A DNA stretch of 64,000 bases from an uncultured Acidobacteriota bacterium (GTDB lineage Bacteria > Acidobacteriota > Polarisedimenticolia > J045), in NCBI GenBank assembly GCA_963702425.1, contig CAVPCQ010000040.1:64001-128000 (forward strand), read 5' to 3'. The notes under the pieces were generated by a model that saw only the letters and a program-made list of their open reading frames with translations, searched no databases and was not told the origin of the DNA. Both the position numbers and the translations under genes were made by a program. Shown here one piece after another: positions 27,907 through 55,779 of this stretch. The stretch's first letter is position 1, and each line of letters opens with the position of its first letter.

Positions 27907-30286
27907 GTGTTCCACCGTCGCCGCTGCCGCCGGCTTACGCCTCGCGAGACGGTCGTTTTCTCCGTCCTCGCCGCGCTGGCCCTGTCCGCCCACCCGGCGA
28001 TTGCGATCTCCGGCCCCGAGTTCGGCGCCGTGCCGCGCGCGGAGGGCCCGGTGAAGATCGACGGCGTCCTCGACGAAGCCGCGTGGCAGCAGGCGCTCGC
28101 GATCCCGCTCCCGTACGAGGTCTACCCCGGCGACAACTCGCCGGCCCCGGTCTCGACGACCGCGCTCCTGCTCTTCGACGACGCCAACCTCTACGTCGGC
28201 TTCCGCGCCGAGGACCCCGCCCCCGGACCGGATCCGCGCGCACTACACCGACCGCGACACCGCCTACCGCAACGACCTCGTCGGCGTGCTGCTCGACCCG
28301 TTCGACGACCAGCGCCACGGCTACCTGTTCGCGGCCAACCCCTACGGGGTGCAGATGGACTCGCGCGCCCAGCAGGACGGCGAGGGGCGGGGGTTCAACG
28401 TCGCCGGGCGCTCCGGCCGAGGACGGCAGCTGGGACGAGCTCTGGGAGTCCGCCGGGCGGGTCGGTCCCGAAGGCTTCACGGTCGAGCTCGCGATCCCCT
28501 TCAGGTCGCTGCGCTACCCGCGCGGCGGCGGCCCCCAGTCCTGGGGGTTCGTCGCCTTCCGGCAGCGGCCGCGCACCGAGCGCGTCCGGACCCAGTCCTC
28601 TCCCGTCGACCGCGACGACAACTGCTGGTTCTGCCAGCTCGGACGGATCGCGCTGCCCGAGGCGCCGCGGCCGGGCCCGGCGATCGAGCTGCTTCCGACC
28701 CTGACCTGGCTGCGCAGCGAGGCCCGCGCCGACGGCCCGTCCGGCCTGCCGGCGTCCGAGCGCGACCTCGAGGTTCGAGCAGAACGAGGTCGACGCCGGG
28801 CTCTCGGCGCGCTGGGGCTTCACCCCCAACTCGAGCCTCAATCTCGCGCTCAACCCCGACTTCTCGCAGATCGAGGCCGACGCGCTCCAGCTCGACGTCA
28901 ACAACCGCTTCGCGCTCTTCTACCCCGAAAAGCGCCCGCTCTTCCTCGAGGGGGCCGACCTGTTCGCCACGCCGATCGGCGTGGTCTACACCCGCACGAT
29001 CGTCGACCCTTCCGCCGTCGCCAAGATCACGATGCGCGAGGGGCGCAACAGCCTCGGCGCCTTCGTGGCCCGGGACGAGCCGACCGCCTTCGTGCTCCCC
29101 TTCCCCGACGGTTCGTTCGGCACCGGTTTCCCGGGCGCGAACACGACCGGCGTGCTGCGCTACCGCCGCGACATCGGCAGCGGCTCTTCGCTCGGGGCGA
29201 TCGCCACCCTGCGCGACGGGGAAGCCGACGCCGACCTCGATCCGGACGACACCGCGGAGCCGGTCGATCGCGGCTACCGGAACTTCGCCGGCGGCCTGGA
29301 CGGCGTCCTCCGCCTCTCCCCTGCCGACGTGGTGACCGCGCAGTGGCTGACCACCTCGACCGACTATCCGGACGCCTTCGCCCGCGCGTTCGAGCAGCCG
29401 ATCGGACGTTCTCGGGTACCGGCTGGACCGCGGACTACGCCCACGAGGCCCGCTTCTGGAGCTGGTACGCCGGGGCCGGCACGCGCTCCCCCGGCTTCCG
29501 CGCCGACGCCGGCTTCATCCCGCGGATCGATCTCCGCTCGGCCTACCTCTCCGGCGGGCGCAGCTTCTACGCCGCACCCGGGTCGTGGTGGACGCGTCTG
29601 CGGATCTTCGCCGAGTGGGAGCGCGCCGAGAACACCGCCGGCGAGTTGCTCGAGGACGAGTGGGCGGTCGAGCTGAACTACAGCGGCCCCTACCAGTCGT
29701 CGGCCAGCTCCGACCGATGCGGGTCCGCGAGTCGTTCCGGGGGACGGTCTACGACCAGCGCGGGATCCGGTTCTTCGGCAACGTGCGGCCGACGGGAGAC
29801 TTCACGACCTCGCTCTCCGCCTTCTACGGCGACGGCATCGACTACGTGAACAACCGTCCCGGGCGGCAGCTCGTGATCGAGCCGGGCCTGACCTGGAACG
29901 CCGGCCGGCACTTCTACCTGCAGCTGGACGACGAGTACGAGCGCTTCGACGAGGCCGGCGGCCGCCTCTACACCGCGAACCAGGCCAACGCCCGCCTGAT
30001 CTACCAGTTCGACGTGCGGACCTTCGTCCGGCTGGTCGTCCAGTGGACCGCCATCGACCGCAACCTCGACCTGTACGGCGCGGGCGCCGGCGGCGGCGAG
30101 GACGACGGCCTCCCCCTCGCCCGCGAGCGCCGGCTCCTGGGCCAGTTCCTCTTCGCCTACAAGCTCGGCCCCCAGACCGTCTTCTTCGCCGGCTTCGACG
30201 AGCGGTCTTTCGAGTCGGAGGCCGTCCCGCTCCACCTCACCGACCGGACCGTTTTCCTGAAGATCGGGTACGACTGGCGGCCCTGA
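27907..30286 (+). CDS. CBM9-like/DUF5916 outer-membrane beta-barrel protein (several frameshifts)
   Basis: KIDGVLDE..W, LLFDDANLYVGF, LDPFDD..GYLF.ANPYGVQ.D, ELAIPFRSLRY, NPDFSQIEAD, FYPEKRPLFLEG, and C-terminal FLKIGYDW, distributed over several frames. Confidence 0.8.
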
Positions 30287-30294
30287 GGCCGGCA

Positions 30295-30360
30295 CCGGCA
30301 AGGCGAATACAAGGCGAATATATTGCCGGAAGATACTAACTAACAATGCCGCTTGCCTAG
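30295..30360 (+). promoter_or_regulatory. AT-rich regulatory region of the redox operon, with tandem 11-bp repeat CAAGGCGAATA x2 inside a CCGGCAA/TTGCCGG dyad
   Basis: Repeats at 30299-30309 and 30310-30320; dyad arms at 30295-30301 and 30323-30329; local drop in GC. Confidence 0.5.
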
Positions 30361-30561
30361 CTCTTTCCCGGCGCGTAAGGTTGGATCGAGCCGGGGCATT
30401 CAGGGATAGCTCCCGCCCCCCACGGCGTCGGGTCTGCCCGTTTCGGAGTGCGGCCGAGTATCGCCGCCGCCGGGCGTGTTTTCTCGGCGCGCTGCCGGCG
30501 GCGGCTCCGGTCGAACCACCCCCTCGCGCCGGGGACGCCGCGCGCACCCGGGAGGCCCGTG

Positions 30562-30963
30562 ATGAGCCAGCACCTCTTGATTCTCGAGATGGAGTGCCCC
30601 GCCTGCCGGGCGATCCTGACGGAGGGGGCGACGGTCCACCTCGACGCCCATGTCGACGAGCAGAACCAGGACGGCGCCGTCTTCCTGAGCGCGGTCTTCG
30701 GCGACCACGGCATCACGACCGACCTGGCGATCCGAGAGGGGGCGACGGTCGAGTTCCGGTGCCCGCACTGCGACGCGTCGCTGATGCTGCGCCACCCCTG
30801 CACGCTCTGCGGCGCGCCGATGGCGTCGATCAACATCACGAGCGGCGGCTACCTCGAGTTCTGCTCGCGACGTGGCTGCCGCGGGCACGCACTCGGCGGC
30901 TTCGGCGACGTCGACCAGATGATGTCGCTCGTCAATCGCATGCTCAAGACACCGCACGACTGA
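30562..30963 (+). CDS. Small double Zn-ribbon/Fe-S-like protein heading the operon
   Basis: CPAC, CPHC, CTLC, CSRRGC; GGAGG RBS upstream. Confidence 0.8.
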   Translation: MSQHLLILEMECPACRAILTEGATVHLDAHVDEQNQDGAVFLSAVFGDHGITTDLAIREGATVEFRCPHCDASLMLRHPCTLCGAPMASINITSGGYLEFCSRRGCRGHALGGFGDVDQMMSLVNRMLKTPHD

Positions 30964-30978
30964 GCGGAGACCGCAGCG

Positions 30979-31449
30979 ATGTCCTCGCACCGGAAGTACG
31001 ACTTCAAGAACCAGAGCTTCGCCGGCGAGCAGGGCCGGCTGATCCCGCTGCTCCAGCAGGCGCAGGAGCAGGAGGGCTACCTCAGCCGCGACGGCCTGCT
31101 GCGGATCCAGCGCGAGTCCGGGATCCCGCTGTCGCAGATCTACGGCGTCGCCACCTTCTACGCCCAGTTCCGGCTCAAGCCGGTCGGCAAGCACCTGGTG
31201 CGCGTCTGCCACGGCACCGCCTGCCACGTCAGCGGCGCAATCGAGGTGACGCAGGCGATCGGCAAGCACCTCGGGATCGCCAACGGCGAGACGACGCCCG
31301 ACCGGAAGTTCACGCTGGAGACCGTGTCCTGCCTGGGCTGCTGCAGCCTGGCGCCGGCTCTGATGATCGGCAGCACCACCTACGGGAACCTCAGCCCGTC
31401 CTCGGTGGTCAAGCTGGTGAAGAAGTTCCAGAAGGAGGACCACTCGTGA
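30979..31449 (+). CDS. NuoE/HydC-like [2Fe-2S] subunit (StnA-like)
   Basis: YGVATFYAQF, VCHGTACH, CLGCC motifs. Confidence 0.95.
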   Translation: MSSHRKYDFKNQSFAGEQGRLIPLLQQAQEQEGYLSRDGLLRIQRESGIPLSQIYGVATFYAQFRLKPVGKHLVRVCHGTACHVSGAIEVTQAIGKHLGIANGETTPDRKFTLETVSCLGCCSLAPALMIGSTTYGNLSPSSVVKLVKKFQKEDHS

Positions 31450-33212
31450 CCCGCGTGCTGGTCGGCCTCGGCACCTGCGGCATCGCGGCCGGCGCGGAGG
31501 AGACGCTGCGCGCCGTCACGGCCAAGCTGGCTGCGGCGCCCGACGGCGTCGAGCTCGCGCGCGCCGGCTGCATCGGGATGTGCTACCGGGAGCCGCTCGT
31601 CGAGATCCGTCACGACGACGGGGCGCGCTTCCTCTACGGCCCGATCGGCGCGGACCGCGTCGAGCGCCTGCTCGACGAGCACGTCGGGCAGGGCAAGCCG
31701 GTCGCCGAGTGGCTGGTCTGGTCGAGCGCCGGCGAGGGGAGCGAGAAGTCGTTCCTCGACCGCCAGCAGCGGATCGTCCTCCGGAACTGCGGCGTGATCG
31801 ACCCCGAGGTCATCGACGACTACGTCGCGCGCGACGGCTACAAGGCGCAGGCCAGGGTCCTGGCCGATGGCGATCCCGACGGGCTGATCAACGTCATCGT
31901 CGAGTCCGGCCTGCGCGGCCGCGGCGGCGCCGGCTTCCTGACCGGGATGAAGTGGCGCTTCACGCGGCTCGCGCCCGGCCCGCACAAGTACATCATCTGC
32001 AACGCCGACGAGGGCGACCCCGGGGCGTTCATGGACCGCTCCGTGCTGGAGAGCGATCCCCACTCCGTACTCGAGGGGATGACGATCGCCGGCTACGCGA
32101 TCGGCGCCGACCACGGCTACATCTACGTCCGCGCCGAGTATCCCAAGGCGATCGAGCGGCTCAACATCGCGATCCGGCAGGCCGAGGAGCGCCGCTTCCT
32201 GGGCGACGGGATCCAGGGCTCGAACTTCTCGTTCCACGTCAAGCTCAAGGAGGGCGCCGGCGCCTTCGTCTGCGGCGAGGAGACGGCGCTGATCGCCTCG
32301 ATCGAGGGCCGCCGCGGCATGCCGCGGGTCCGTCCCCCCTTCCCCGCCACCAAGGGGCTGTGGGACTGCCCGACCTCGATCAACAACGTCGAGACCTTCG
32401 CCAACGTCCCGTGGATCGTCCAGAACGGCGCCGCGGCCTTCAACCGCCTCGGCACGAAGGACAGCAAGGGGACCAAGGTCTTCGCGATGGCGGGCAAGGT
32501 CAAGGACGGCGGCCTGGTCGAGGTCCCGATGGGGATCTCGATCAAGGAGATCGTCTTCGACGTCTGCGGCGGAATCAAGGGCGACCGCAAGTTCAAGGCG
32601 GTCCAGATGGGCGGCCCCTCCGGCGGCTGCATCCCGGCCGAGCTGCAGAACACCGTCATCGACTACGAGTCGATCAACAAGACCGGCGCGATCATGGGCT
32701 CGGGCGGACTCGTCGTGATGGACGAGACGACCTGCATGGTCGACATCGCCCGCTTCTTCCTCGAGTTCACGCAGCGCGAGTCGTGCGGCAAGTGCACCTT
32801 CTGCCGCGTCGGCACCAAGCGGATGCTGGAGATCCTGACCCGCATCACCGAGGGCAAGGGGCAGGAGGGTGACATCGACCTGCTGGCCGACCTGGCCCAG
32901 CAGGTCCGGAACAGCTCGCTGTGCGGCCTGGGACAGACGGCGCCCAACCCCGTCCTCACGACGATCAAGTACTTCCGCTCGGAGTACGAGGCCCACATCG
33001 CGAACCGGAAGTGCCCGGCCCACCACTGCGCCAAGCTGCTCACCTTCACCATCACCGACGACTGCAACGGCTGCACGCTCTGCCTCAAGGCCTGCCCGAC
33101 CGAGGCGATCACGGGCAGCCGGAAGGTCATGCACGTGATCGACCAGGAGCTCTGCATCGTCTGCGGCGAGTGCTACAACGCCTGCCGCTTCGACGCCATC
33201 GTCAGGGACTGA
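31446..33212 (+). CDS. NuoF/HydB-like FMN/NAD-binding bifurcating subunit (StnB-like)
   Basis: N-terminal thioredoxin-like ferredoxin (GTCG..GCIGMC), GLRGRGGAGF, NADEGDPGAFMDR, AFVCGEETAL, GGPSGG, ESCGKCTFCR, CPAHHC, and a C-terminal 2x[4Fe-4S] domain. Confidence 0.95.
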   Translation: MTRVLVGLGTCGIAAGAEETLRAVTAKLAAAPDGVELARAGCIGMCYREPLVEIRHDDGARFLYGPIGADRVERLLDEHVGQGKPVAEWLVWSSAGEGSEKSFLDRQQRIVLRNCGVIDPEVIDDYVARDGYKAQARVLADGDPDGLINVIVESGLRGRGGAGFLTGMKWRFTRLAPGPHKYIICNADEGDPGAFMDRSVLESDPHSVLEGMTIAGYAIGADHGYIYVRAEYPKAIERLNIAIRQAEERRFLGDGIQGSNFSFHVKLKEGAGAFVCGEETALIASIEGRRGMPRVRPPFPATKGLWDCPTSINNVETFANVPWIVQNGAAAFNRLGTKDSKGTKVFAMAGKVKDGGLVEVPMGISIKEIVFDVCGGIKGDRKFKAVQMGGPSGGCIPAELQNTVIDYESINKTGAIMGSGGLVVMDETTCMVDIARFFLEFTQRESCGKCTFCRVGTKRMLEILTRITEGKGQEGDIDLLADLAQQVRNSSLCGLGQTAPNPVLTTIKYFRSEYEAHIANRKCPAHHCAKLLTFTITDDCNGCTLCLKACPTEAITGSRKVMHVIDQELCIVCGECYNACRFDAIVRD

Positions 33213-33239
33213 CCGTGAGGGACTGACCGGAGGTACTCG

Positions 33240-36200
33240 ATGGGTCTGGTCAAGCTGGAAATCGACGGCAAGCGGGTCATTGCCGAGTCGGGGCAGACGA
33301 TCCTGGAAGCCGCGCGCGACAACGGGATCGACACCATCCCCACGCTGTGCCACGACCGCCAGCTCGAGCCGTTCTCTTCCTGCTATGTCTGCGTCGTCAA
33401 GGTGAAGGGCGCGCGCACGCTGCTCCCGGCTTGCTCGACCAAGGTCGCGGCCGGGATGAGCGTCGAGACCGGGAGCGACGAGGTCCGTCGCTCGCGCAAG
33501 GCGGCGCTCGAGCTGATGCTGTCCAACCACTACGCCGACTGCATCGGGCCCTGCCAGCTCGCCTGCCCGGCCGGGATCGACATCCAGGGCTACATCGCGC
33601 TGGCGGCACTGGGCAAGTACCACGACGCGATCCGCCTGATCAAGGACCGGAACCCGCTCCCCGCGATCTGCGGGCGGGTCTGCACGCGGCCGTGCGAGGT
33701 CTCGGGCTGCCGCCGCAACCTGCTCGACCAGGCGGTAGGAATCGATTACATCAAGCGCTACCTCGCGGATCTCGACCTGGGACGGACGGATTCCGTGGTC
33801 CCGACGATCCCTGCGCCCAACGGGCACCGCGTCGCCGTGGTCGGTGCCGGCCCGGCCGGCCTGTCCTGCGCCTACTACCTCGCGCTCCGCGGGTTCTCGG
33901 TGCAGATGTTCGAGAAGATGCCCGAGGCCGGCGGCATGCTGCGCTACGGGATCCCGGAGTACCGCCTGCCGAAGGAGATCCTGGACCTCGAGGTCAACCA
34001 GATCCTGGACCTCGGCGTGAAACTCTCCACCAACGTCGCGCTGGGCGCCGACTTCACGGTCCGGAGCCTGCGGGAGGATGACGGGTTCGACGCGGTCTTC
34101 CTGGGGATCGGCGCCTGGGACAGCACCGAGATGCGGGTGCAGAACGAGCGCACGGAGCGCGTGCTGTCGGGGATCGAGTTCCTGAAGAACTTCGGCCTGC
34201 GGCGCGCGCCGAAACTGCACGGCCGGGTGATCGTCGTCGGAGGCGGCAACACGGCGGTCGACTGCGCGCGCACCGCGCTGCGCGTCGGCGCCGCCAACGT
34301 GACGATCCTCTACCGCCGCACCCGGGCCGAGATGCCCGCCAACGAGGTCGAGATCGTCGAGGCCGGCCACGAGGGCGTGACGATGGAGTTCCTCGCCGCC
34401 CCGGTGCGCGTGCTCGAGAAGGACGGGCGCGTGGCGGGGCTCGAGTGCATCCGGATGGAGCTGGGGGAGCCGGACGCCTCCGGACGCCGCAGCCCCAAGC
34501 CGTTGCGCGGCTCGGAGTACGTCGAGGAGTGCGACTTCGTGATCGCCGCGATCGGCCAGGCCACCACGGTGAGCGAGCTGATCGGCGGCCGGGTCCCGAA
34601 TTTCCTGCCGCAGGGGGAGATGCTCAACCTGACGCGCTGGAAGACCATCCAGGTCAACGAGCAGACCTTCGAGACCTCGGTCGAGGGGGTCTTCTCCGGC
34701 GGCGACGTCGTCACCGGCGCGGCGACCGCGATCGAGGCGATCGCCGCCGGCCGCAAGGCCGCGCACGCGATCGACGCCTACCTGACTCGGGGCAAGGCGG
34801 AACCCGAGCCGTGGGAGTTCTTCAGCCGCAGGGACACTTTCGGCAAGGTCACGGTCGCCGACCTGCCGAACCGCACCACCCCCGCCGCGCGGCCGATGCC
34901 GCTGATCTCGATCGAGGAGCGGAAGAACAGCTTCACCGAGGTCGAGACCGGCTTCACTCTGGAGGACGTCCTCGCCGAGTCGCACCGTTGCCTGGAGTGC
35001 GGCTGCGACGCGCTCTTCACCTGCGACCTCCGGAAGTACGCCACCGAGTACGGCGTCGACATCACCTCGTTCGTCGGCGAAGCGCTTCACCACGAGGTGG
35101 ACCGGTCGCACCCGCTGATGACACTCGACCCGAACAAGTGCATCCTCTGCGGCCGTTGCGTGAGGATGTGCGGTGAAGTCGTCGGCGTCTCGGCCTACGG
35201 CTTCGTCAACCGCGGTTTCGCCACGGTGGTCCGCCCGGCGCTCGGCGGGAGCCTGCTCGAGACCGACTGCGTCAGCTGCGGACTGTGCATCGGCACCTGT
35301 CCCACCGGTGCGATCGCGGCAGTGTCGCACCTCGACAAGCCGGGACCGTGGAAGAGCGAGCGCGTCCCGACGGTCTGCCACTTCTGTGGAGTCGGCTGCC
35401 GGCTCAACTACGAGTACTACGGCGAGACGCTGCTCGACGCCTCGCGCGCCGAGGACAGCGCCGTGACCTGCGGCAACTACTGCCGCAAGGGCCGATTCGG
35501 GTTCCGCTGGGTCCAGGATCGGGAGCGCCTCGTCGTGCCGCGGATCCGCGGCGGCCGCGAACAGCAGCCGACTTCGCTCGACGACGCGCTGACCTTCACC
35601 GCGAGCCGCCTCAAGGACCTCAAGCGGCGCATCCCGGGCCGCGAGATCGCGGTCTTCGTCTCGCCGCGCCTCTCCAACGAGGAGATCTTCCTGGCCCAGA
35701 AGTTCGCGCGGGTTGCGCTGGGAACCCACAACGTGACGACCTTCGCGTCGCTGGCCAACCCCGATCTCTTCTGCCCGGACGTGGTCTCGACCGGCTCCTA
35801 TCGCGACCTGCTCGACGCGCAGGCGATCGTCGTCGTCAATTCCCGGACCGACGACGAGCACTTCGTCGCCGATCTCCTGGCCAAGCGCGCGATCCGCCAG
35901 GGGACGAAGCTGATCTACGTCGGCGCCGGCGAGAACCGGACCTCGAGCCTGGCCGAGGTCTGGCTCCCTTGCCGGCCGGGAACGGAAGCCGAGGTGCTCG
36001 TCGCGCTCGCCGCCGCCGCGGCGGGCGACGGGGACGCCTTCGAGTCGCACCCGGCGCTGGCCGAGGCCGCCCGCGGTCTGTCGACCGCGACGCTCGCGGA
36101 GCGCGCGGGGATCGACCCCTCCGACTTCGACGAAGCGGCGCGGATCCTGGCCAAGAGCGTGCTGAAGGTCGTCGTCTTCAACAAGGACTTCCGCGGCCCG

Positions 36201-37010
36201 CGGGTCGCCGGCGACGAGCGGATCTTCGCCGCCGCGGCCGACGCGCTGGGCGCCAGCTTCCTCGCGCTGCGCGAGAAGTCGAACATGCAGGGGCTGCTCG
36301 ACATGGGTGCGCACCCGTCCTGGTTCCCGGGGTACCAGAAGACCGACGACGCGGCGGCAATCGAGGCGCTCGAGAGGGAGTGGTGCGTGACGCTGCTCGA
36401 CCTCGACCGCGAGTGCGCCGACGTGGCCGACCTCTTGCGGCGCAAGGCGATCAAGGTCGCGGTGGTGCTGGGCGAGGACCCCTTCGGCACGCCCGACCTC
36501 CCGGAGGAGCTGCGGGCCGGGCTCGAGGCGGTCGATCTGCTCGTCGTGGCCGACGTCGTGGACACCGCGACCACCCGCGCGGCCGACGTCGTCCTGCCGC
36601 TCTCGGCCCCGGCCGAGACCTCCGGGACCTTCACGAACCAGGAGCGGCGGGTCCAGCGCTTCCGCCGCGCGGTCGCGCCCCGCTCGGGGATCGAGACCTG
36701 GCAGCTGCTCTGCGAGCTGACGGCGCGCCTCGGGCTGCGCTTCAAGATGAAGTACGCCGGCGTCGACGCGGTGACCGAGGAGATCCGGCGGATCGTGCCG
36801 ATCTACCGGGACGTCGTGGTGGACAGTCCCGACGCCGACGGGACGTGGGACCTGGCCCGCTTCCCGCTGCCGCGGCGCCCGGCCGACTCCACCGGCCTGG
36901 GCCGCGCGGATGTCCCCGCCGCGACCCTCCCTCTCGACGCCCTCGAGGCTCGCTTCGCAAGCTGGTTCGAGAAGACGATCGCCGAAGCCCAGAAGGCCCT
37001 GACTGGATAG
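33240..37010 (+). CDS. NuoG-N [2Fe-2S] + GltD/NfnB-like FAD/NADPH + 2x[4Fe-4S] + Mo-cofactor-less FdhF-like fusion (StnC-like)
   Basis: IPTLCH..C..C; PCQLACP, ICGRVC; GAGPAG; GGGNTAVD; CILCGRCVRMC, CVSCGLCIGTCP; CHFCGVGC..C.KGRFG. HNVTTFASL lacks the Mo-ligating Cys/Sec, and no C-terminal molybdopterin dinucleotide-binding domain is evident. Confidence 0.9.
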   Translation: MGLVKLEIDGKRVIAESGQTILEAARDNGIDTIPTLCHDRQLEPFSSCYVCVVKVKGARTLLPACSTKVAAGMSVETGSDEVRRSRKAALELMLSNHYADCIGPCQLACPAGIDIQGYIALAALGKYHDAIRLIKDRNPLPAICGRVCTRPCEVSGCRRNLLDQAVGIDYIKRYLADLDLGRTDSVVPTIPAPNGHRVAVVGAGPAGLSCAYYLALRGFSVQMFEKMPEAGGMLRYGIPEYRLPKEILDLEVNQILDLGVKLSTNVALGADFTVRSLREDDGFDAVFLGIGAWDSTEMRVQNERTERVLSGIEFLKNFGLRRAPKLHGRVIVVGGGNTAVDCARTALRVGAANVTILYRRTRAEMPANEVEIVEAGHEGVTMEFLAAPVRVLEKDGRVAGLECIRMELGEPDASGRRSPKPLRGSEYVEECDFVIAAIGQATTVSELIGGRVPNFLPQGEMLNLTRWKTIQVNEQTFETSVEGVFSGGDVVTGAATAIEAIAAGRKAAHAIDAYLTRGKAEPEPWEFFSRRDTFGKVTVADLPNRTTPAARPMPLISIEERKNSFTEVETGFTLEDVLAESHRCLECGCDALFTCDLRKYATEYGVDITSFVGEALHHEVDRSHPLMTLDPNKCILCGRCVRMCGEVVGVSAYGFVNRGFATVVRPALGGSLLETDCVSCGLCIGTCPTGAIAAVSHLDKPGPWKSERVPTVCHFCGVGCRLNYEYYGETLLDASRAEDSAVTCGNYCRKGRFGFRWVQDRERLVVPRIRGGREQQPTSLDDALTFTASRLKDLKRRIPGREIAVFVSPRLSNEEIFLAQKFARVALGTHNVTTFASLANPDLFCPDVVSTGSYRDLLDAQAIVVVNSRTDDEHFVADLLAKRAIRQGTKLIYVGAGENRTSSLAEVWLPCRPGTEAEVLVALAAAAAGDGDAFESHPALAEAARGLSTATLAERAGIDPSDFDEAARILAKSVLKVVVFNKDFRGPRVAGDERIFAAAADALGASFLALREKSNMQGLLDMGAHPSWFPGYQKTDDAAAIEALEREWCVTLLDLDRECADVADLLRRKAIKVAVVLGEDPFGTPDLPEELRAGLEAVDLLVVADVVDTATTRAADVVLPLSAPAETSGTFTNQERRVQRFRRAVAPRSGIETWQLLCELTARLGLRFKMKYAGVDAVTEEIRRIVPIYRDVVVDSPDADGTWDLARFPLPRRPADSTGLGRADVPAATLPLDALEARFASWFEKTIAEAQKALTG

Positions 37011-37041
37011 ACTGTCGCCGCTTCCCCGCGGAGGGCGCGCC

Positions 37042-39442
37042 TTGTACCGCATCGTCAAGCGCGAGCAGTTCGGCCCGGTGACATTCCTCTGGGACGTGGA
37101 GGCGCCGGCCCTCGCCCGCGCCGCACGGCCGGGCCACTTCCTGATGGTCCGCATCGACGAGACCGGAGAGCGGATCCCGCTGACGGTCGCCGATTTCGAC
37201 CGCGAGCGCGGGACGGTGACCGTCGTGATCCAGACGGTCGGCAAGACGACCCGGCAGATGATGGAGCTTCCCGAGGGGGCCCAGCTGCTGGACTTCGTCG
37301 GGCCGCTCGGGCTGCCCAGCCACATCGGAACGCCCGGCAAGACGGTGCTCGTCGGCGGCGGACTCGGCGTGGCGCCGGTCTTCCCCCAGCTCCGCGCCTA
37401 CAAGGAGATGGGCAACCCGACGATCGCGATCATCGGGTTCCGCAACAAGGACCTGATGTTCTGGGACGACAGGTTCCGGAGGTATTCGGACGAGCTGGTG
37501 GTCACGACCGACGACGGCTCGTTCGGGATGAAGGGGTTCGTCACCCACGCGTTGCAGCAGGTGCTCGACGCGCACCCGGACGTGAAAGAGGTCGTCGCAA
37601 TCGGGCCGCTCGTCATGATGCGGGCCTGCGCCGAGGTGACGCGGCCGCGCGGGATCCACACGCTCGTCAGCCTGAACTCGATCATGGTCGACGGGACCGG
37701 GATGTGCGGCTCCTGCCGCGTGACGATCGACGACCAGATGGCGTTCGCCTGTGTCGACGGCCCGGACTTCGACGGCCACAAGGTCAACTTCGACGAGCTG
37801 ATGCTGCGGCAGAAGCGCTTCGAATGGGAAGAGCGCGAGGCGCTCGAACGCTACGCCCGGGAGACCCAGCGGGTCGCCTCGCTCCGGCTCCCGTCGAGCG
37901 ATCCGCCGGCGGTGGCCGCCGTCGAGTCGATCGTCAAGCCGCCCGTCCCGGAACCGCTCCCGCCGCCGGCCCCCGGCGCGCCGCCCGTCGTCAAGACGAT
38001 GCGCACGGTCCGGCCGACCCGCACGCCGATGCCCGAGCAGCCGGCCGGCGTCCGGGCGCACAACTTCGAGGAGGTCACCCTCGGGTTCTCGCTCGACGAC
38101 GCGCTGGGCGAGGCCGACCGCTGCCTGGGGTGCAAGAAGCCGCGCTGCGTGCCCGGGTGCCCGGTCGGGATCGACATCCCGGGCTTCATCGGCGCCCTCG
38201 CGCGCCACGATCTGCGGGAGTCGTACCGGATCCTGAAGGCCTCGAACGCGCTCCCGTCGGTCTGCGGCCGCGTCTGCCCGCAGGAGAGCCAGTGCGAGGC
38301 GCCGTGCATCCTGAGCGGGCGGATGGAGCCGGTCGCGATCGGGCGTCTCGAGCGCTTCGTCGCCGATTTCGGACTCGGCAGGGGTTGGGACGAAACACCC
38401 AGCGCCCCGAAGACCGGGCAAGAAGGCCGCGATCATCGGCTCCGGCCCCGCCGGGCTCGCCTGTGCCGGTGACCTGATCAAGCACGGCCTGGAGGTCACC
38501 GTCTTCGAGGCCCTGCACGTCGCGGGCGGCGTACTCAAGTACGGCATCCCGGAGTTCCGGCTGCCGAACTACATCATCGACGTCGAGGTCGACAACCTGC
38601 GGAAGCTCGGCGTGAAGATCGAGCTGGACGCGGTGATCGGGAAGCTCCACACCATCCCCGAGCTGATGACCGAGATGGGCTACGGCGCCGTCTTCATCAG
38701 CACCGGCGCCGGCTCGCCGCGGTTCATGAACATCCCGGGCGAGGCGTTCAACGGCGTCTTCTCGGCCAACGAGTTCCTCACGCGCGTCAACCTGATGCGC
38801 GGCAACGAGCGCCCGCTGTACGACACCCCGGTCGGGATGGGCCGCCGGGTCGCGGTCGTCGGCGCCGGCAACACCGCGATGGACGCCGCGCGCGTCGCGC
38901 TGCGGCTGGGCGCCGAGCGGGTGATGGTCGTCTACCGCCGCAGCGAGGCCGAGTCGCCGGCGCGCGTCGAGGAGCTGCACCACGCCCAGGAGGAGGGCGT
39001 GGAGTTCATGTGGCTCACCAACCCGGTGCGGATCCTCGGCAGCGACGAGGGCTGGGTCTCCGGGATGGAATGCGTCGAGATGACGCTGGGCGAGCCGGAC
39101 GCCTCCGGCCGCCGGCGGCCGATCCCGAAGGAAGGGAGCGAGCGGCTGATCGACGTCGACACCGTGATCTGCGCGCTGGGAACGTCGTCCAACCCGATCA
39201 TCGCGCAGACCACGCCCGGGCTGAAGACCAACAAGTGGGGCTACATCGAGATCGACGAGGCGACCGGCGCGACCTCACTGCCGGGCGTCTACGCGGGCGG
39301 CGACATCGTGACCGGCGCCGCGACCGTCATCCTGGCGATGGGCGCCGGCCGCAAGGCCGCCGCCGGCATGCTGCAGCACCTGGGGCTGGCTCCGAAGCCG
39401 CCCAGCGAGTTCACCGAGGCCACCGAGTTCGAGGAGGAGTGA
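37042..39442 (+). CDS. Fused NfnA-NfnB (SudB-SudA-like) NADH-dependent ferredoxin:NADP+ oxidoreductase; frameshift near 38417
   Basis: NfnA: ERIPLT, GGGLG, MVDGTGMCGSCRV, CVDGPDFD. Pro-rich linker. NfnB: RCLGCKKPRCVPGCPV, CGRVCPQESQC, (KK)AAIIGSGPAGL after the shift, GAGNTAMD, GGDIVTGAATVILAMGAG. Confidence 0.92.
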
Positions 39443-39447
39443 GAGCG

Positions 39448-40083
39448 ATGCCTTCCACCTGTCCCAAGTGCCGCCAGGTCGTGGCCGAGGACATCGTCTG
39501 CTGCGCCGAGCTGCGCTACACCTGGAAGTGCACGAGTTGTCACAAGCTCTCGACCGGCTTCGCGCTTCCGTTCGGGCGCTGCTTCCTCTGCGGCGGGACG
39601 GTCGCGGTGGTCGCGGGGCGCGAGATCGAAGACCCGATGCGGGTCCGCCCGATCCGCGACGCCGTACAGTTCGAGCTGAACACCTACCACTTCTACCGCC
39701 TGGCGATGGCGAAGGCGACCGACCCGACGCTCAAGGCGATCCTCGAGCAGCTCTTCCTGCACGAGAAGGACCACCTACACGCGCTGCAGGAGAAGTACCA
39801 CACCCACATGGACGACACCGTGCTGAACCTCCGGCCCGATGCCGACGCGCTGCTGGCCGACGAGCTGTTCGCCGGGATCGACTTCCGGGACCCGCGGGGC
39901 GGGCCGCTCGGCCTGTACGACAAGGCGATCGAGATCGAGCGCCGCAACCGCGACTACTTCAAGTCGATGGCGGCCTCGCTGCCGGCCGGACCCGAGCAGG
40001 AGATCTGCCTCGAGCTGGGCGCCGAGGAAGACGAGCACATGGCGATTCTGGAAACAGAGCGCGAGCAGTTCGTGAAATCGTAG
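39448..40083 (+). CDS. Zn-ribbon plus rubrerythrin-like (ferritin-fold diiron) protein
   Basis: CPKC, CC, CTSC, CFLC followed by E..YHFY, EKDH, E.....YF, EEDEH. Confidence 0.8.
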   Translation: MPSTCPKCRQVVAEDIVCCAELRYTWKCTSCHKLSTGFALPFGRCFLCGGTVAVVAGREIEDPMRVRPIRDAVQFELNTYHFYRLAMAKATDPTLKAILEQLFLHEKDHLHALQEKYHTHMDDTVLNLRPDADALLADELFAGIDFRDPRGGPLGLYDKAIEIERRNRDYFKSMAASLPAGPEQEICLELGAEEDEHMAILETEREQFVKS

Positions 40084-40097
40084 GGGGCAGACGGACC

Positions 40098-40637
40098 ATG
40101 ACCGGCCAACCCGCGCCACTGCGCTACCAGATGGTCAACGTGCAGAACGGCTACGTGATCATCGAGAAGGAGGTCTTCAGCGGTGCCGCGCGCGCCTACT
40201 TCTCGACCGAGCCGGTTCCTCCGAAAGAGGAGTACCGCGAGGGAGCCAGGATCTGGAAGTACGGCGGGATGGCGCAGTCCTTCCAGTTCGACGTTCTGGA
40301 CCGCGAGACCGGAACGATCACCCCCTTCCGCGAGATGCTGGGGCTGATGTACTACGGCTGCGCCCGGCCGGGCACGGACCTGCGCCGCCTCGGCGAGCTG
40401 GCCCACGAGGACCGGATCTCGATCTACGTCGCTCTCGCCTACGAGGGCCCGGACGGGTCTCCGCGGCAGATGCCGCTCGAGAAGCTGTCGATCCTCAACC
40501 GGGCCTTCAACGAGCGACTGCGGTCGGCGGAGAAGAAGATCCTGATCGTCCCGGACTGCTTCGGGCTGTACAAGGACATGTCGCACGGCGAGGTCATGAT
40601 CGATTTCGGCTTGACTACGATGGAAGAGGAAGCCTGA
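40098..40637 (+). CDS. Hypothetical protein (179 aa) in the redox operon
   Basis: Genome-like codon usage, operon-tight spacing, non-biased composition; no family recognised. Confidence 0.7.
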   Translation: MTGQPAPLRYQMVNVQNGYVIIEKEVFSGAARAYFSTEPVPPKEEYREGARIWKYGGMAQSFQFDVLDRETGTITPFREMLGLMYYGCARPGTDLRRLGELAHEDRISIYVALAYEGPDGSPRQMPLEKLSILNRAFNERLRSAEKKILIVPDCFGLYKDMSHGEVMIDFGLTTMEEEA

Positions 40638-40659
40638 GCGGCAGGCGGAGAGGGACACG

Positions 40660-40992
40660 ATGAAACTGCGGGAGATCGCCGAAAAGCTGGAACTGAAGCC
40701 CCTGACCAAAGACCTCTACGACAAGGACGTGACCGGGGTCTATATTTCCGACATGGTCAGCGACGTGATCGCCAACGCGCACGCCGGGAGCCTGCTCGTG
40801 ACGGCCCAGATCCACAACAACGTGATCGCCGCGGCCAACCTGGTGGACGTCGCCGCGATCATCGTGGCCCAGGGCAAGACCCCGGCCGAGGACGTGGTGA
40901 AGATGGCGGACAAGGCCGAGCTGGCGCTGTTCGCGACACCGCTCAGTCGCTGGCAGGTCGCCACGCGCCTCTACGAGGTCGGCCTCCGGTGA
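40660..40992 (+). CDS. DRTGG domain protein
   Basis: YISDMVSDVI, LLVT.Q.H.NVIAAA pattern typical of hydrogenase-cluster DRTGG proteins. Confidence 0.85.
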   Translation: MKLREIAEKLELKPLTKDLYDKDVTGVYISDMVSDVIANAHAGSLLVTAQIHNNVIAAANLVDVAAIIVAQGKTPAEDVVKMADKAELALFATPLSRWQVATRLYEVGLR

Positions 40993-41393
40993 GCACCCGC
41001 GGGAGCCATCCCCCGGCCGATCCCGCTGCCCGGAAACCGCTCCGGATGGCGGATCTGCTGGAGCTCCTGCGCTGCGAAGTGATCTCCGGCAGCGACCAGC
41101 TCGACGGTTTCGAGCCGACCGGCTTCTTCGCGGCCGACCTGATGAGCGACGTGCTGGCCTTCGCCCACCCGGGCAACGTGCTCCTGACCGGCCTGACCAG
41201 CCTGCAGGCGGTCCACACCGCGGACGTGGCCGAGATGCCCGCGATCGTCTTCGTCGACGGCAAGCGCCCGATCGACGACGTCCGCGAGACGGCGGAGCGC
41301 CGCGGCATCCCGCTGCTCGCCACCCGCTTCGACATGTTCGAGGCCTGCGGCCGGCTCTACGAAGCGGGCCACGTCGCGAGGCGCAAGCCATGA
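40989..41393 (+). CDS. DRTGG domain protein
   Basis: FAADLMSDVLAF, LLTGL....VHTA, IVFVDGK.P, MFEACGRLY. Confidence 0.85.
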   Translation: MSTRGSHPPADPAARKPLRMADLLELLRCEVISGSDQLDGFEPTGFFAADLMSDVLAFAHPGNVLLTGLTSLQAVHTADVAEMPAIVFVDGKRPIDDVRETAERRGIPLLATRFDMFEACGRLYEAGHVARRKP

Positions 41394-41830
41394 GCCCGGA
41401 CGTGCTCTACCGCGAGTCGTTCGCCGTCGAGGGGAACGACTTCGAGCACGGCGGCAACGTCGCCACCGCGATCAAGGCCACGCTGCGCGAGCTGGGGATC
41501 GCGGCCGACGCGATCCGCCGCCTGTCGATCGCCAATTTCGAAGCCGAGATGAACGTCATCATGTACGCCCGCCGCGCAGAGTTCGTGTTCACGATCACAC
41601 CCGAACTCATCAGCGTCGTCGCCGCCGACGAGGGCCCGGGCATCCCCGACATCGAGTGGGCGATGCAGGAGGGCCACTCGACGGCCACTCCCGAGATGCG
41701 CGAGCGCGGCTTCGGTGCCGGCCTCGGCCTTCCCAACATCCGCAAGAACTCCGACGAGTTCGCGATCGAGTCGATCGTCGGCTCCGGCACGACGCTGCGC
41801 TACGCCGTGCGGCTCGACCAGGGCGCCTGA
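41390..41830 (+). CDS. RsbT/RsbW-like GHKL Ser/Thr kinase (anti-sigma regulatory factor type)
   Basis: FEAEMNVIMYA, DEGPGIPDI..AMQEGHST, GFGAGLGLPNI, IES..GSGT. Confidence 0.9.
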   Translation: MSPDVLYRESFAVEGNDFEHGGNVATAIKATLRELGIAADAIRRLSIANFEAEMNVIMYARRAEFVFTITPELISVVAADEGPGIPDIEWAMQEGHSTATPEMRERGFGAGLGLPNIRKNSDEFAIESIVGSGTTLRYAVRLDQGA

Positions 41831-41837
41831 GGCAGCC

Positions 41838-43160
41838 ATGACGGAAGCGGCCCGTTCCATCATCGTCGACATCGCGCGCTGCACCGGCTGCGTGGCCTGC
41901 TCCAAGGCCTGCCCCACCAAGGCGATCCGCGTCCGCGACAACCTGGCCCAGGTGAACCACGAGCTGTGCATCGACTGCGGCGAGTGCGCCCGCGTCTGCC
42001 CGCACGAGGCCGCCCGCTCGGTGACGACCCCGCCGTCGGACCTGGGCAAGTTCAAGGTGACGGTCGCGATCCCCTCGATCACGCTCTACGCGCAGTTCGG
42101 CAAGGACGTCCACCCGGGCCAGGTGCTCAAGGCGCTCGAGCGGATCGGCTTCGACCGGGCCTACGACCTGTCCTGGATGTGTGAGCTGGTGGCCGGCGCG
42201 ACCGACGCCTTCCTGGCCGAGAGCCGCGGCCCCTGGCCCGCGATCTCGGTCACCTGCCCCGCGATCACGCGGATCGTCCAGCTGCGCTACCCCGACCTGC
42301 TCGATCACCTGGTCCCGGTCGAGTCGGCCCGCGAGCTGGCCGCCAAGATGCTGCGCCGCAAGCTGGCCGCAGAGCTGTCGGTCGAGCCGCACGAGATCGG
42401 CCTCTTCTTCATCACCCCCTGCGTCGCGATCATGCATTCGATCCTCAGCCCGGTCGGACTCGAGCAGTCGTACTTCGACGGCGCGATCTCGATCGCCGAG
42501 CTCTACGGCCCGCTGCTGCACGCGATCAAGGAGGCCCCGGAGGACGACATCCGGACGCACGAGGTCAGCCCGCAGGGGCTGCTCTGGGCGATGTCGGGCG
42601 GCGAGATCGCCGGGCTCCGGGCCTCGAGCACGCTCACGATCCGCGGGGTCGAGGACGTCCAGCACGTCTTCGACCGGATCGAGTCCGGGACGCTCCGCAG
42701 CGTCGACTTCATCGAGGCCTACATCTGCCCCGACGGCTGCATCTCGGGCGGCCTGACGGTCGAGGGTCGCTACCGCGCCGCGCGCACCATCCAGCACCTC
42801 TCGCGCCAGCTGGCGGGCCAGCGCCCGGTCAAGGAAGAGACGCTGCGGACCCTCCTGCGCCAGAACTTCTTCGACTTCGAAAAGGAGATCGAGGCCCGCC
42901 CGGTCCGGCCGCTGGCCTCGAGCCTGCGGGAGGCGATCGCCCTGCGCCACCAGCGCGACGCGCTGCTCGAGCGGTTGCCCGGCAAGAACTGCGCGGCCTG
43001 CGGCGCTCCCGACTGCGAGACCTTCGCCGAGGACATCCTGCGCGGTGAGTCGGTCGTGGGCGACTGCGTCTTCGTCCGCATCGAGCAGCTCGAGCGGGCC
43101 GTTCGAGAGCAGCCCGCTGCTCCGCTCACCACCTTACCGCCACGCGGTAGCTCAGCTTGA
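41838..43160 (+). CDS. Sensory-type [FeFe]-hydrogenase-like Fe-S protein with degenerate H-cluster motifs
   Basis: N-terminal 2x[4Fe-4S]; L1 ISVTCP, L2 TPCVAI, L3 EAYICPDGCISGG; C-terminal LPGKNCAACG.PDC...C Fe-S domain. Confidence 0.85.
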   Translation: MTEAARSIIVDIARCTGCVACSKACPTKAIRVRDNLAQVNHELCIDCGECARVCPHEAARSVTTPPSDLGKFKVTVAIPSITLYAQFGKDVHPGQVLKALERIGFDRAYDLSWMCELVAGATDAFLAESRGPWPAISVTCPAITRIVQLRYPDLLDHLVPVESARELAAKMLRRKLAAELSVEPHEIGLFFITPCVAIMHSILSPVGLEQSYFDGAISIAELYGPLLHAIKEAPEDDIRTHEVSPQGLLWAMSGGEIAGLRASSTLTIRGVEDVQHVFDRIESGTLRSVDFIEAYICPDGCISGGLTVEGRYRAARTIQHLSRQLAGQRPVKEETLRTLLRQNFFDFEKEIEARPVRPLASSLREAIALRHQRDALLERLPGKNCAACGAPDCETFAEDILRGESVVGDCVFVRIEQLERAVREQPAAPLTTLPPRGSSA

Positions 43161-43230
43161 CCTCCTGCCCCTTCGGCACCGGCACCTCGAACTCCAGCGT
43201 GCCGGCGTCGAGCTTCTTCCCGGGGAGGCT
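43125..43230. repeat. Left copy of a 106-bp direct repeat (duplicated 3' end of the DUF4139 gene)
   Basis: Matches 46185-46290 with one mismatch (43219 C versus 46279 T). Confidence 0.97.
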
Positions 43231-43367
43231 CGACCGAACCGCTCGTATTCCCAGCATGGCGACACTCCTCCGGCGCAGATTCGACCAGTTGCAGTGACGT
43301 GCTAGACTTGCGTGGTAAGCAATCTCCCTGCGAATATTGGTCGGAAGCAAGCCGGAGTGATCAGAGG

Positions 43368-44693
43368 ATGAGCGGCGCAATGTCAGGGAAGAGTAGTGGT
43401 TCGCGCCTCCGCCAACCCCGTTTGCGTGCGGCAGCGCCATCCGAAGCGCACGACGCGATGCCCTCGCTCCGCCGCGGCTTGTCGGCCTTTGGCCTCTTCG
43501 CTGGGATTGGCGGATTCGAACTCGGGTTGCAGCGGGCGGGACACCAAGCGGTGGGTTTCTGTGACATCGACGAGGGGGCGTGCGCGGTGCTGCGCGCTCG
43601 CTTTCCTGGCGATCCCATCCATTCAGATGTACGTGAGATTCGTCGCCTACCCGCAGACGTCGAGCTCCTAACCGCGGGATTCCCCTGCCAGGACCTCAGT
43701 CAGGCGGGTCGGACCACGGGAATCACCGGCAAGCAGTCAGGCCTCGTCGAGGAGGTCTTTCGCCTGTTGGCTGAAGGCCCGGTACCGTGGCTCCTCATCG
43801 AGAACGTCTCTTTCATGCTTCACCTCCAAGCCGGCCGCGCGCTCGCATTGGTTCTCGATAGCCTCGAGAGGCTCGGATACCGCTGGGCCTATCGCGTGGT
43901 GGACTCCCGAGCGTTTGGGCTGCCTCAGCGCAGGCAACGGGTGTTCATCCTCGCGTCCCTGGTCGGTGATCCACGCGACGTGCTCCTGTCCGACGATGCC
44001 GAGGAACCATCCGGCGGTCCGGATCCGATGACCGTCGCTTGTGGGTTCTATTGGACGGAGGGGGTCCGCGGGCTGGGCTGGGCCGTCGACGCCGTGCCTA
44101 CGCTCAAGGGCGGATCCACGATCGGAATCCCGTCTCCGCCAGCGATCCTCCTCCCCGATGGCCGCATCGTGACGCCCAACATTTTGGATGCGGAGCGGTT
44201 TCAAGGATTCCCAGCGGACTGGACCCTGCCCGCCGCAGCAGCCGCTCGCTCTTCTCATCGCTGGAAACTCGTCGGTAATGCCGTCACCGTCGACGTTGCC
44301 GAGTGGATTGGCATGCGGCTTCGGTCGCCGCGTCCTTACGAGGATTCCATGGACATGCCGCTGATTGCGGCGGCACGCTGGCCTCTCGCGGCCTGGGGCG
44401 ACCGCAGCGGGCGCTTCGCTGCATCCGTCTCCATGTGGCCTCAACGCGTCTCTGGCCCAGGATTGGAGTCGTACCTAGTACACGAGCCCGCCCCACTCTC
44501 AGTGAAAGCGACCTCGGGCTTCCTGTCACGAACCCGTCGAAGCACACTTCGCTTTCCGGACGGCTTCTTGACGCGAGTCGAGAATCACCTTCGGCGAATG
44601 GTCGCGATCTCGGAGTCTCGCCCAGTGTCCAACGATGCTCTGCCTTCCGAGGCTCTTTCTCGCCGCGCAGTCTCCAATGCTCGTCGTCGATGA
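43368..44693 (+). CDS. dcm: DNA (cytosine-5)-methyltransferase
   Basis: LFAGIGG (motif I), GFPCQD (IV), ENV (VI), QRRQRVF (VIII), RFQGFP (IX), GNAV (X). Start could be 43458. Confidence 0.95.
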   Translation: MSGAMSGKSSGSRLRQPRLRAAAPSEAHDAMPSLRRGLSAFGLFAGIGGFELGLQRAGHQAVGFCDIDEGACAVLRARFPGDPIHSDVREIRRLPADVELLTAGFPCQDLSQAGRTTGITGKQSGLVEEVFRLLAEGPVPWLLIENVSFMLHLQAGRALALVLDSLERLGYRWAYRVVDSRAFGLPQRRQRVFILASLVGDPRDVLLSDDAEEPSGGPDPMTVACGFYWTEGVRGLGWAVDAVPTLKGGSTIGIPSPPAILLPDGRIVTPNILDAERFQGFPADWTLPAAAAARSSHRWKLVGNAVTVDVAEWIGMRLRSPRPYEDSMDMPLIAAARWPLAAWGDRSGRFAASVSMWPQRVSGPGLESYLVHEPAPLSVKATSGFLSRTRRSTLRFPDGFLTRVENHLRRMVAISESRPVSNDALPSEALSRRAVSNARRR

Positions 44694-45084
44694 GGTTACC
44701 TCTCGACGACTAGGCTCCGTTCGGCAGCGCGGGACGACACCGGAGCTCGTCGTCCGACGCGTGGTCTCCGAACTCGGACATCGGTATCGGGTCGAGAATC
44801 GTGACCTTCCTGGCTCACCTGATCTTGCGAATCGGTCCCGCCGTTGGGCCATCTTCGTGCACGGGTGCTTCTGGCACGCTCATGCCGGATGCCACCGCGC
44901 TACGATCCCGCGCCGCAATGCGGATTTCTGGAGCAGGAAGTTTGCCGACAATCGCTCGAGAGACGCCCGAGTGCTCGGCCGGTTGACCGAAGCGGGGTTC
45001 CGCACACTGGTCGTATGGGAGTGCGAGCTAGTTCACCCGAAAGGCGTGCGCCGCAGAGTCGAGCGCTTCCTTGGGGATCGCTGA
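44677..45084 (+). CDS. vsr: Very-short-patch repair endonuclease
   Basis: TTPE..VRR, LPGSPD, IFVHGCFWH.H, N..FW..K..N..RD, VVWEC. Confidence 0.95.
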   Translation: MLVVDEVTSRRLGSVRQRGTTPELVVRRVVSELGHRYRVENRDLPGSPDLANRSRRWAIFVHGCFWHAHAGCHRATIPRRNADFWSRKFADNRSRDARVLGRLTEAGFRTLVVWECELVHPKGVRRRVERFLGDR

Positions 45085-45096
45085 GACTCGTGAGCT

Positions 45097-45993: not shown

Positions 45994-46184
45994 CGCTTCT
46001 CACTCCCCGCCGCTGGACGGCGAAAGGAACCGAGTCTGGGTCCCGTCATTCGGGAATGTCAACCGGCGGCTGCGTCGTGCCGCGGTCCGTCTTCCCGCGC
46101 TCGCATGCTGCACGTGGGCGACGATCGGTCCCGGGGTAGGACCGCTCGAAATCCGTTCCATTGCTGCAAGTTCCGGCGAATCGA

Positions 46185-55699: not shown

Positions 55700-55779
55700 C
55701 TAACTCGGCCCGCACTTCGGGTGAACGCTCCCCTCGTGTACGCTCGCGCGGTCCTCCCCCCCTGGAAGGAGACCGCGCG

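Follow-up and report, generated by a model that had tools for sequence, protein, structure and literature searches.

This study examined an operon within a 64,000-nucleotide stretch of DNA from an uncultured Acidobacteriota bacterium (contig CAVPCQ010000040.1, positions 64,001 to 128,000; hereafter the window) that encodes both an Stn-type transhydrogenase (StnABC) and a fused NfnAB. Such an operon offers a direct test of why one reaction has two enzymes. Eleven genes on the forward strand span 30562-43160 with intergenic gaps of -4 to +31 bases, as the initial annotation had described, and its domain calls agreed with Pfam and NCBIfam. These databases revealed, in order, a weakly matched Zn-ribbon-like protein, NuoE, NuoF, a NuoG/GltD/molybdopterin fusion, NfnA plus NfnB, and a weakly matched rubrerythrin (genes 1-6), followed by a protein without a match, two DRTGG proteins, an HATPase_c_2 kinase, and an Fe_hyd_lg_C iron-sulfur protein (genes 7-11). 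The explanation that we favor is that the locus comprises two cassettes, in which StnABC and a redox-signaling module would form the core, and the fused NfnAB and a Zn-ferritin would form an optional second unit. From the sequence comparisons described below, we assign this explanation as a whole a probability of roughly 0.55.

We assigned genes 2-4 to StnABC, a Type 1 Nfn-Bfu enzyme, because of their top matches in the PDB, the signatures retained in StnB, residues K172 and R242 of StnC, and the lack of a molybdenum ligand; the Stn/Bfu identity proposed by the initial annotation is thus supported. Gene 2 (30979..31449, +) encodes the NuoE-like StnA/BfuC (PF01257, E=4e-48), with [2Fe-2S] cysteines at 77, 82, 118, and 122. 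Gene 3 (31446..33212, +) encodes the NuoF-like StnB/BfuB. Its strongest matches were 8oh5_B (826 bits), 9bov_B (814), and 9n5u_B (800), followed by the HydB subunits of NiFe and FeFe hydrogenases (721-602 bits) and then by the beta subunits of formate dehydrogenases (at most 439 bits). The HydB-type signatures previously reported in this subunit were located at residues 187 (ADEGDPGAFM), 273 (AFVCGEET), and 389-393 (GGPSG). PMC7311640 gives A/E232, M234, F367, and GGPSG as the bifurcation signatures of BfuB, and A194, M196, F274, and GGPSG are kept here. In addition to the flavin mononucleotide (FMN)/NAD site, StnB carries the cysteines of the B1, B3, and B4 clusters (447/450/453/493, 540-550, and 570-580) and a B2 site (C430/H517/C523/C528); PMC9304861 describes these clusters and the His/Cys set of the B2 site.

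Gene 4 (33240..37010, +) encodes the 1256-residue StnC/Nfn-BfuA, in which a GltD-like flavin adenine dinucleotide (FAD)/NADPH domain is inserted in NuoG and an FdhF-like tail without the molybdenum ligand follows, in agreement with the fusion initially proposed. Its top PDB matches were 9bov_A (847 bits), 8oh5_C (737), and 9n5u_A (647), and formate dehydrogenases scored at most 297 bits. K172 and R242, invariant in all 39 aligned relatives, are the equivalents of K170, at the FAD-proximal cluster, and R239 of the characterized StnC, the roles of which are described in PMC10482914. An NADP(H)-type GxGxxA motif (GGGNTA) lies at residue 334. The Cys-His pair that binds molybdenum in FdhF aligns with A839-N840, a position at which no cysteine was found in any of the 39 relatives, and the alignments stop near residue 510-515 of FdhF chains of 674-743 residues, before the FdhF C-terminal domain. 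The absent Cys/His ligands and the far stronger Stn matches rule out a Mo/W formate dehydrogenase, the identity that would have refuted the initial annotation.

The three-gene order, domain layout, and FMN/NAD motifs are the same as those of StnABC from Sporomusa ovata (8oh5) and NfnABC from Caldicellulosiruptor saccharolyticus (9bov), to which we infer that these entries belong from the chain lengths of 1172 and 1178 residues given in the papers. Also common to all three are the cluster cysteines, the K170/R239 equivalents, and the inactive FdhF tail. By contrast, gene 4 is approximately 80 residues longer than its counterparts and has Ile at the position of C114; the locus adds an upstream gene with eight cysteines, a sensory module, and a linked NfnAB; and its closest relatives are mainly from Acidobacteriota and Eisenbacteria bins, not from Firmicutes acetogens. 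The enzymes from S. ovata and C. saccharolyticus have been demonstrated to exchange electrons among NADPH, NADH, and ferredoxin (PMC7483475, PMC11829005); the family is characterized by NADPH oxidation that depends on ferredoxin and NAD+ and by assembly as a tetramer of trimers. Judging from homology and the conserved residues, the StnABC of the window would couple two NADPH to NAD+ and ferredoxin by way of FAD, an iron-sulfur chain, and an FMN/iron-sulfur bifurcating site. In a related locus (L056:1884-5008), an [FeFe] H-domain takes the place of the FdhF-like tail behind a NuoG/GltD N-terminal scaffold like that of StnC, in a gene that is apparently frameshifted; the tail therefore appears to be exchangeable.

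The composition of the core was determined by a scan of GTDB genomes, in which the best 80 of 592 confirmed candidate loci were examined with 10-kb flanks (hereafter the best 80 loci). The trimer was present in 65 of these, full-length in 53, and 38 had at least 4.5 kb upstream and at least 3 kb downstream. The ten closest loci (58-89% identity) and the window fell into one 35-row StnC clade with a support of 100 (Shimodaira-Hasegawa-like approximate likelihood ratio test, quick tree). Seven of the ten (L002-L008), from Acidobacteriota, Eisenbacteria, and Chloroflexota bins, exhibited the gene order 7-8-9-10-11-1-2-3-4, a permutation of that in the window; L009 contained only genes 1-2-3-4, L010 only genes 2-3-4, and L001 genes 1-2-3-4 before its contig ended at the 3' end of stnC. 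Neither nfnAB nor gene 6 was found in the ten closest loci. Among the seven loci with the full module, nfnAB was absent from all six with flanks of the lengths given above, and the seventh, L004, is truncated. Because well-flanked loci with the full module lack nfnAB, NfnAB is optional, and the conserved unit consists of Stn, gene 1, and the sensory module.

Two members of this core cassette, genes 1 and 7, are conserved in the alignments and gene orders but uncharacterized. Gene 1 (30562..30963, +) encodes a protein of 133 residues with two putative Zn sites; its eight cysteines, arranged in four pairs, and His109 were invariant in 10 of 10 aligned copies. It lies directly 5' of stnA in nine of the ten closest loci and falls in an Atlas cluster (score 0.97) that comprises 77 hypothetical proteins. 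Gene 7 (40098..40637, +) encodes 179 residues of no known family or fold, has 125 homologues, and is the first gene of the module in L002-L008. No match to it was obtained in Pfam, NCBIfam, or plasmids. Its predicted structure has a predicted local distance difference test (pLDDT) score of 83 with Atlas scores of at most 0.84, and Foldseek returned no match at E<=0.001; the best structural match had a Z of 5.0 over 60 residues. These results demonstrate neither a novel fold nor kinship to a known protein.

The remainder of the sensory module consists of genes 8-11. Gene 8 (40660..40992, +) encodes a stand-alone DRTGG protein (PF07085, E=7e-08) with an invariant S30-D31-x-x-S34-D35, and gene 9 (40989..41393, +) encodes a second one (PF07085, E=2e-05, marginally below the curated threshold) with an invariant D-L-M-S, each in an alignment of ten sequences; both have an invariant serine within an (S/A)D(L/M)(M/V/L)SD stretch. 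Gene 10 (41390..41830, +) encodes a Ser/Thr kinase-like HATPase of the SpoIIAB/RsbT type (PF13581, E=4e-08; TIGR01925; matches to SpoIIAB structures), the N, G1, and G2 boxes of which are intact in the alignment. Neither a STAS anti-anti-sigma protein nor a sigma factor was found among the 11 genes or the 50 other long open reading frames of the window. A complex predicted from the kinase, both DRTGG proteins, and ATP scored 0.36, and one control scored 0.38. In two Delongbacteria loci (L034:4289-13648 and L036:4263-13594), genes for DRTGG, CBS-kinase, DRTGG, PHP, and HATPase proteins precede the stn cluster, which includes a separate gene for a thioredoxin-like ferredoxin and no HydS-like gene. 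The kinase and DRTGG proteins therefore travel together, and the sensor is separable from them.

Gene 11 (41838..43160, +) encodes a group D (M2e) [FeFe]-hydrogenase-like iron-sulfur protein with two [4Fe-4S] clusters, an H-domain, and a C-terminal Cx2Cx4Cx16C motif (C385/388/393/410); it has the full M2e layout, as given in PMC8163306, and no PAS domain. The hydrogenase-like character that was initially noted is thus retained, and the generic label gives way to a group D layout without the lysine of the L2 motif. This lysine is replaced by Ile198 in gene 11 and by Ile, Val, or Met in all eight Stn-linked copies, whereas it is kept in 92 of 134 full-length wider relatives drawn from the best 150 listed. 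Mutagenesis of K358 in CpI and of CrHydA1 reportedly showed this lysine to be required for holding the diiron site. It is present in catalytic hydrogenases in our alignments and also in TamHydS, a group D sensory hydrogenase, as read by eye from the coding sequence in the supplement of PMC13104023; the residue equivalences between gene 11 and TamHydS likewise rest on motifs read by eye. According to PMC10407848, the proton path of group D comprises E252, E289, S249, and D265 of TamHydS, and the D265 equivalent is Arg, Lys, Ser, or Ala in all eight Stn-linked copies and Asp in 85 of 131 wider relatives. In a FastTree phylogeny, a long stem leads to a 10-row clade (support 100) formed by the Stn-linked copies, and the relatives around it mostly bear the lysine. 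The predicted structure of gene 11, made from eight sequences, had a mean pLDDT of 45, too low for use.

Gene 11 and TamHydS have in common the two [4Fe-4S] clusters, the H-domain, the Cx2Cx4Cx16C motif, the E252/E289 equivalents, a neighboring HATPase, and a location beside a BfuABC-type enzyme; gene 11 differs in lacking the L2 lysine and the D265 equivalent and in having Stn, not HydABC, as its partner. The initial annotation had stated that such accessory genes accompany bifurcating hydrogenases, and according to PMC8163306 a trimeric group A hydrogenase does lie downstream of TamHydS, which also has an HATPase as its neighbor. It had also stated that no hydrogenase is present, which held within the 64-kb window and is confined to it: a tblastn search with the HydA H-domain gave no match at E<1e-3, a motif scan revealed no L1-L2-L3 set, and no hydrogenase or maturase family was found among the 50 other long open reading frames. 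The flanks of L002-L008 contained no HydA either. Gene 11 probably holds iron-sulfur clusters only, without a diiron H-cluster site. Because none of the eight Stn-linked copies has the diiron-site lysine, which 92 of 134 wider relatives keep, the protein is more likely an iron-sulfur redox sensor than an H2 sensor. It is plausible that the locus was rewired from a HydABC type, as the initial annotation had proposed, although the change could have run either way.

In the favored explanation, gene 11 descends from group D sensory hydrogenases and most likely reports the cellular redox state or the state of ferredoxin or O2 rather than H2. Most likely, the adjacent kinase would pass this signal on through phosphorylation, for which the invariant serines in the products of genes 8 and 9 are candidate targets, and the relay would adjust the amount or activity of Stn, thereby tuning the enzyme to the redox state. 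A bolder version, which we consider rather doubtful, is that a hydrogenase-derived sensor without the H-site reads ferredoxin or O2 and, through the kinase and the DRTGG proteins, switches flow between the two mechanistically different bifurcating transhydrogenases or diverts NfnAB to a diiron O2 or peroxide sink, with genes 1 and 7 as new accessory factors of Stn. If this version is true, Stn would be a regulated enzyme, and the locus would offer a natural model of group D signaling without an H-cluster.

The second cassette begins with gene 5 (37042..39442, +), which we identified from its domains and residues as a canonical fused NfnAB. It contains the FAD/NAD/[2Fe-2S] domain of NfnA and an NfnB with two [4Fe-4S] clusters, and all of the bifurcation residues that were checked are present, including the Glu437 cluster-ligand motif and an Arg aligned to P. 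furiosus R201 at FAD N5. The NfnA part matched 5jca_S, the small subunit of P. furiosus NfnI, with 331 bits versus 167 bits for 5vj7_B, and the NfnB part matched T. maritima NfnB (4ylf_B) with 407 bits. Gene 5 also has the Asp+3Cys [2Fe-2S] motif of these enzymes, and its fusion of NfnA to NfnB is common to pattern B of Liang et al. 2019 (PMC6405883) and to PRK12775; it differs from all of these in a Pro-rich linker of approximately 50 residues, its position inside an stn operon, and a frameshift in this assembly. Thus, the fused NfnAB of the initial annotation stood, and the single open frame did not: the reading frame from 37042 stops at 38472. NfnII-type homologues without bifurcating activity exist. 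The function of an NfnAB homologue is not tellable from sequence alone, according to PMC6405883.

Gene 6 (39448..40083, +) starts 5 bases after nfnAB and encodes a Cys-rich N-terminus (eight cysteines) and a ferritin/rubrerythrin-like domain with two ExxH motifs. It matches positions 798-998 of the 1006-residue NCBIfam PRK12775 model of an NfnA-NfnB-ferritin protein (E=4e-40), in which the ferritin part is fused rather than separate. Because gene 6 corresponds to the last 200 positions of this model, genes 5 and 6 constitute a known unit on their own. No homologue of gene 6 was found in the best 80 loci. In some lineages, this cassette may be an optional co-transcribed addition, in which NfnAB would serve as a separate enzyme for the same exchange, providing extra capacity or acting under other conditions, or may instead feed the diiron protein of gene 6. 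PMC12018979 reports specific activities of 130 U/mg for P. furiosus NfnSL versus 20 for T. sibiricus NfnABC.

The recurrence of the linkage was examined through equal sizes of the longest contigs among 120 StnC, 120 fused NfnAB, and 120 gene 7 relatives. The results revealed three coincidences between StnC and NfnAB, three between NfnAB and gene 7, and nine between StnC and gene 7, compared with 0.36, 0.27, and 0.27 expected by chance. Five StnC/NfnAB and related pairs were matched (P0002/P0122, P0063/P0138, P0124/P0242, P0158/P0322, and P0170/P0274). The top matches P0002 and P0122 share a contig size of 246,652 bp, P0063 (N-terminally cut) and P0138 fill 5,748 of 5,912 bp, and the last three pair congruently in both trees. 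These findings suggest that the linkage of Stn and NfnAB recurs in about five relatives, and it is probably not confined to this assembly.

Another nfnAB lineage, which is unfused (44-47% identity in NfnA), was detected close to stn in 4 of the best 80 loci, divergently in three Aminicenantes bins (L020, L021, and L025) and co-directionally in an Aegiribacteria bin (L064), and in all four a receiver-Lrp/AsnC gene stands between stn and nfnAB. On the StnC tree, an nfn-adjacent label, in a set that included P0115, required 4 changes, of which starred branches forced at least 3; 44 of 500 shuffles were as low. The same type of receiver-domain/Lrp-AsnC gene is found directly upstream of stnA in a sister Stn clade, with matches in 16 of the best 80 loci (L015, L016, L019-L023, L025, L029, L031, L032, L046, L064, and L075; partial in L013 and L014), often with a PAS histidine kinase and a sigma-54 regulator downstream. 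Glu/Leu/Phe/Val dehydrogenase genes occur in the stn flanks of nine of these 80 loci (L003, L006, L012, L033, L034, L040, L043, L064, and L075), in four beside a receiver-PPDK_N protein; glutamate dehydrogenase-family neighbors give a weak hint of amino-acid-derived NADPH.

Several observations nevertheless weigh against parts of the two-cassette explanation. The position of C114 in StnC is occupied by Ile in the window and by Ile or Val in all 39 aligned relatives; PMC10482914 notes that this cysteine is not strictly conserved in the family and is V or I in some homologues. In gene 11, the four cubane cysteines of the H-domain (140/195/297/301) and the Glu pair of the group D proton path (E256 and E293) are kept, and 42 of the 134 wider group D-like relatives also lack the L2 lysine, a loss that is thus not confined to the Stn-linked copies and that these proteins may tolerate. 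The absence of nfnAB holds for the flanks of L002-L008, and the gene could lie elsewhere in these genomes. Size matching indicates the same contig, not adjacency, except in the 5,912-bp case, and the stnC-nfnAB junction itself was not seen in the relatives' DNA that was examined. A further size match, P0115/P0171, was dropped as probable chance: its sources differ and the sister locus L008 lacks nfnAB.

We weighed these data against other explanations of the locus. If gene 11 were a genuine group D H2 sensor, with HydEFG encoded elsewhere, the module would tune Stn to H2 pressure. The full M2e layout with its C-terminal motif, the cubane cysteines, and the E252/E289 equivalents are consistent with this (PMC8163306, PMC10407848), and HydEFG could lie in the genome beyond the window; however, the lysine retained in TamHydS is lost from every Stn-linked copy, and neither the window nor the L002-L008 flanks revealed a hydA, which makes an H2 sensor unlikely. 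The NfnAB cassette might alternatively function mainly as an electron feed for diiron gene 6 in peroxide or O2 defense and would then not be redundant with Stn. The 5-base spacing, the PRK12775 fusion, the ExxH motifs, and the desaturase and rubrerythrin genes elsewhere in the window point in this direction, as does the proposal in PMC9304861 that Bfu enzymes with rubrerythrin partners reduce H2O2. Nevertheless, the rubrerythrin similarity of gene 6 is weak (Pfam E=0.007; PDB E=0.08), every bifurcation residue that was checked is present in NfnAB, and the enzyme resembles NfnI more closely than 5vj7; we regard this role as unlikely.

The initial annotation had proposed a supercomplex or an obligate pair of oppositely directed enzymes, for which the 31-base spacing between stnC and nfnAB, the recurrent linkage, and the second nfnAB lineage near stn in L020, L021, L025, and L064 could be cited. 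Against this proposal, nfnAB is rare, occurring in only 4 of the best 80 loci and in none of the 6 well-flanked ones that carry the full module, and both enzymes are self-sufficient when purified from other organisms (PMC7483475, PMC10482914). On thermodynamic grounds, moreover, one reversible reaction in one compartment has one driving force, so the two enzymes could not work against each other simultaneously unless they used different carriers or ferredoxins or acted at different times. We consider this proposal very improbable. Finally, nfnAB might be a decaying pseudogene, or the junction might be misassembled. Aligned with intact relatives of 793-809 residues, gene 5 follows frame 1 to approximately 38424 and frame 2 from approximately 38399, which places the break within 38399-38424; the closest locus, L001, ends at the 3' end of stnC, and the junction was not directly seen in relatives. 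However, both pieces are 92-95% identical to one intact relative of 799 residues (intact fused relatives range from 783 to 861), and the equal contig sizes of P0002/P0122 and the nearly filled contig of P0063/P0138 argue against a misjoined junction. Other genes are broken as well: the upstream gene at 28286-30286 (+) falls into five segments over three frames compared with an intact open reading frame in L001, and a glutamine synthetase gene (47812-49250, -) is split over two frames. Because of these repeated frame switches, the assembly of the source contig is indel-prone, and the frameshift in gene 5 is therefore most likely a sequencing or assembly error; decay or misassembly appears highly unlikely.

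The catalytic parts all belong to known families, and what seems new is their combination, an apparently H-cluster-less Stn-tied group D clade, and two unknown accessory proteins. Stn and Nfn are almost mutually exclusive in acetogens, with both in 2 of 48 genomes (PMC7483475), and Thermococcales typically have either one or the other (PMC12018979). Supplements of the Stn/Bfu papers aside, no co-operonic Stn and NfnAB, and no Stn with a DRTGG/kinase/group D module, were found in the open-access literature searched. PMC13104023 states the signaling and partners of group D sensory hydrogenases as an open question, and the compact, conserved module names candidates for such partners, namely the kinase, the two DRTGG proteins, and gene 7, while separating signaling from H2 chemistry. 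StnC relatives are often labeled formate dehydrogenase; in genome surveys, StnC may be mis-scored as such an enzyme and gene-11-like genes as hydrogenases.

Upstream of the operon, a candidate sigma-70-type promoter was noted at 30353..30381 (+), consisting of two hexamers with a 17-base spacer. The hexamers are identical in L001 although the spacer between them has diverged, and a conserved AT-rich block (30335-30348) lies just upstream, so that the non-coding stretch 30335-30381 kept in L001 is a candidate promoter or operator; a general promoter scan did not list the pair, which has only 7 of 12 consensus matches. No Rfam family was found within 28000-46000, no Rex-like site was found in a pattern scan, and no upstream motif was shared across the 11 regions compared. 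Directly after the operon, a stretch of lower GC content (43299-45084) encodes a C-5 DNA methylase and a Vsr endonuclease. Genes for a fatty acid desaturase (52864-53985) and for a classical rubrerythrin (55630-56358) suggest an oxygen-exposed host. The window also encodes an RHS-repeat protein (2-4906, -) that is cut by its edge and a 2509-residue Vps10/subtilase/PKD protein (56426-63955, -).

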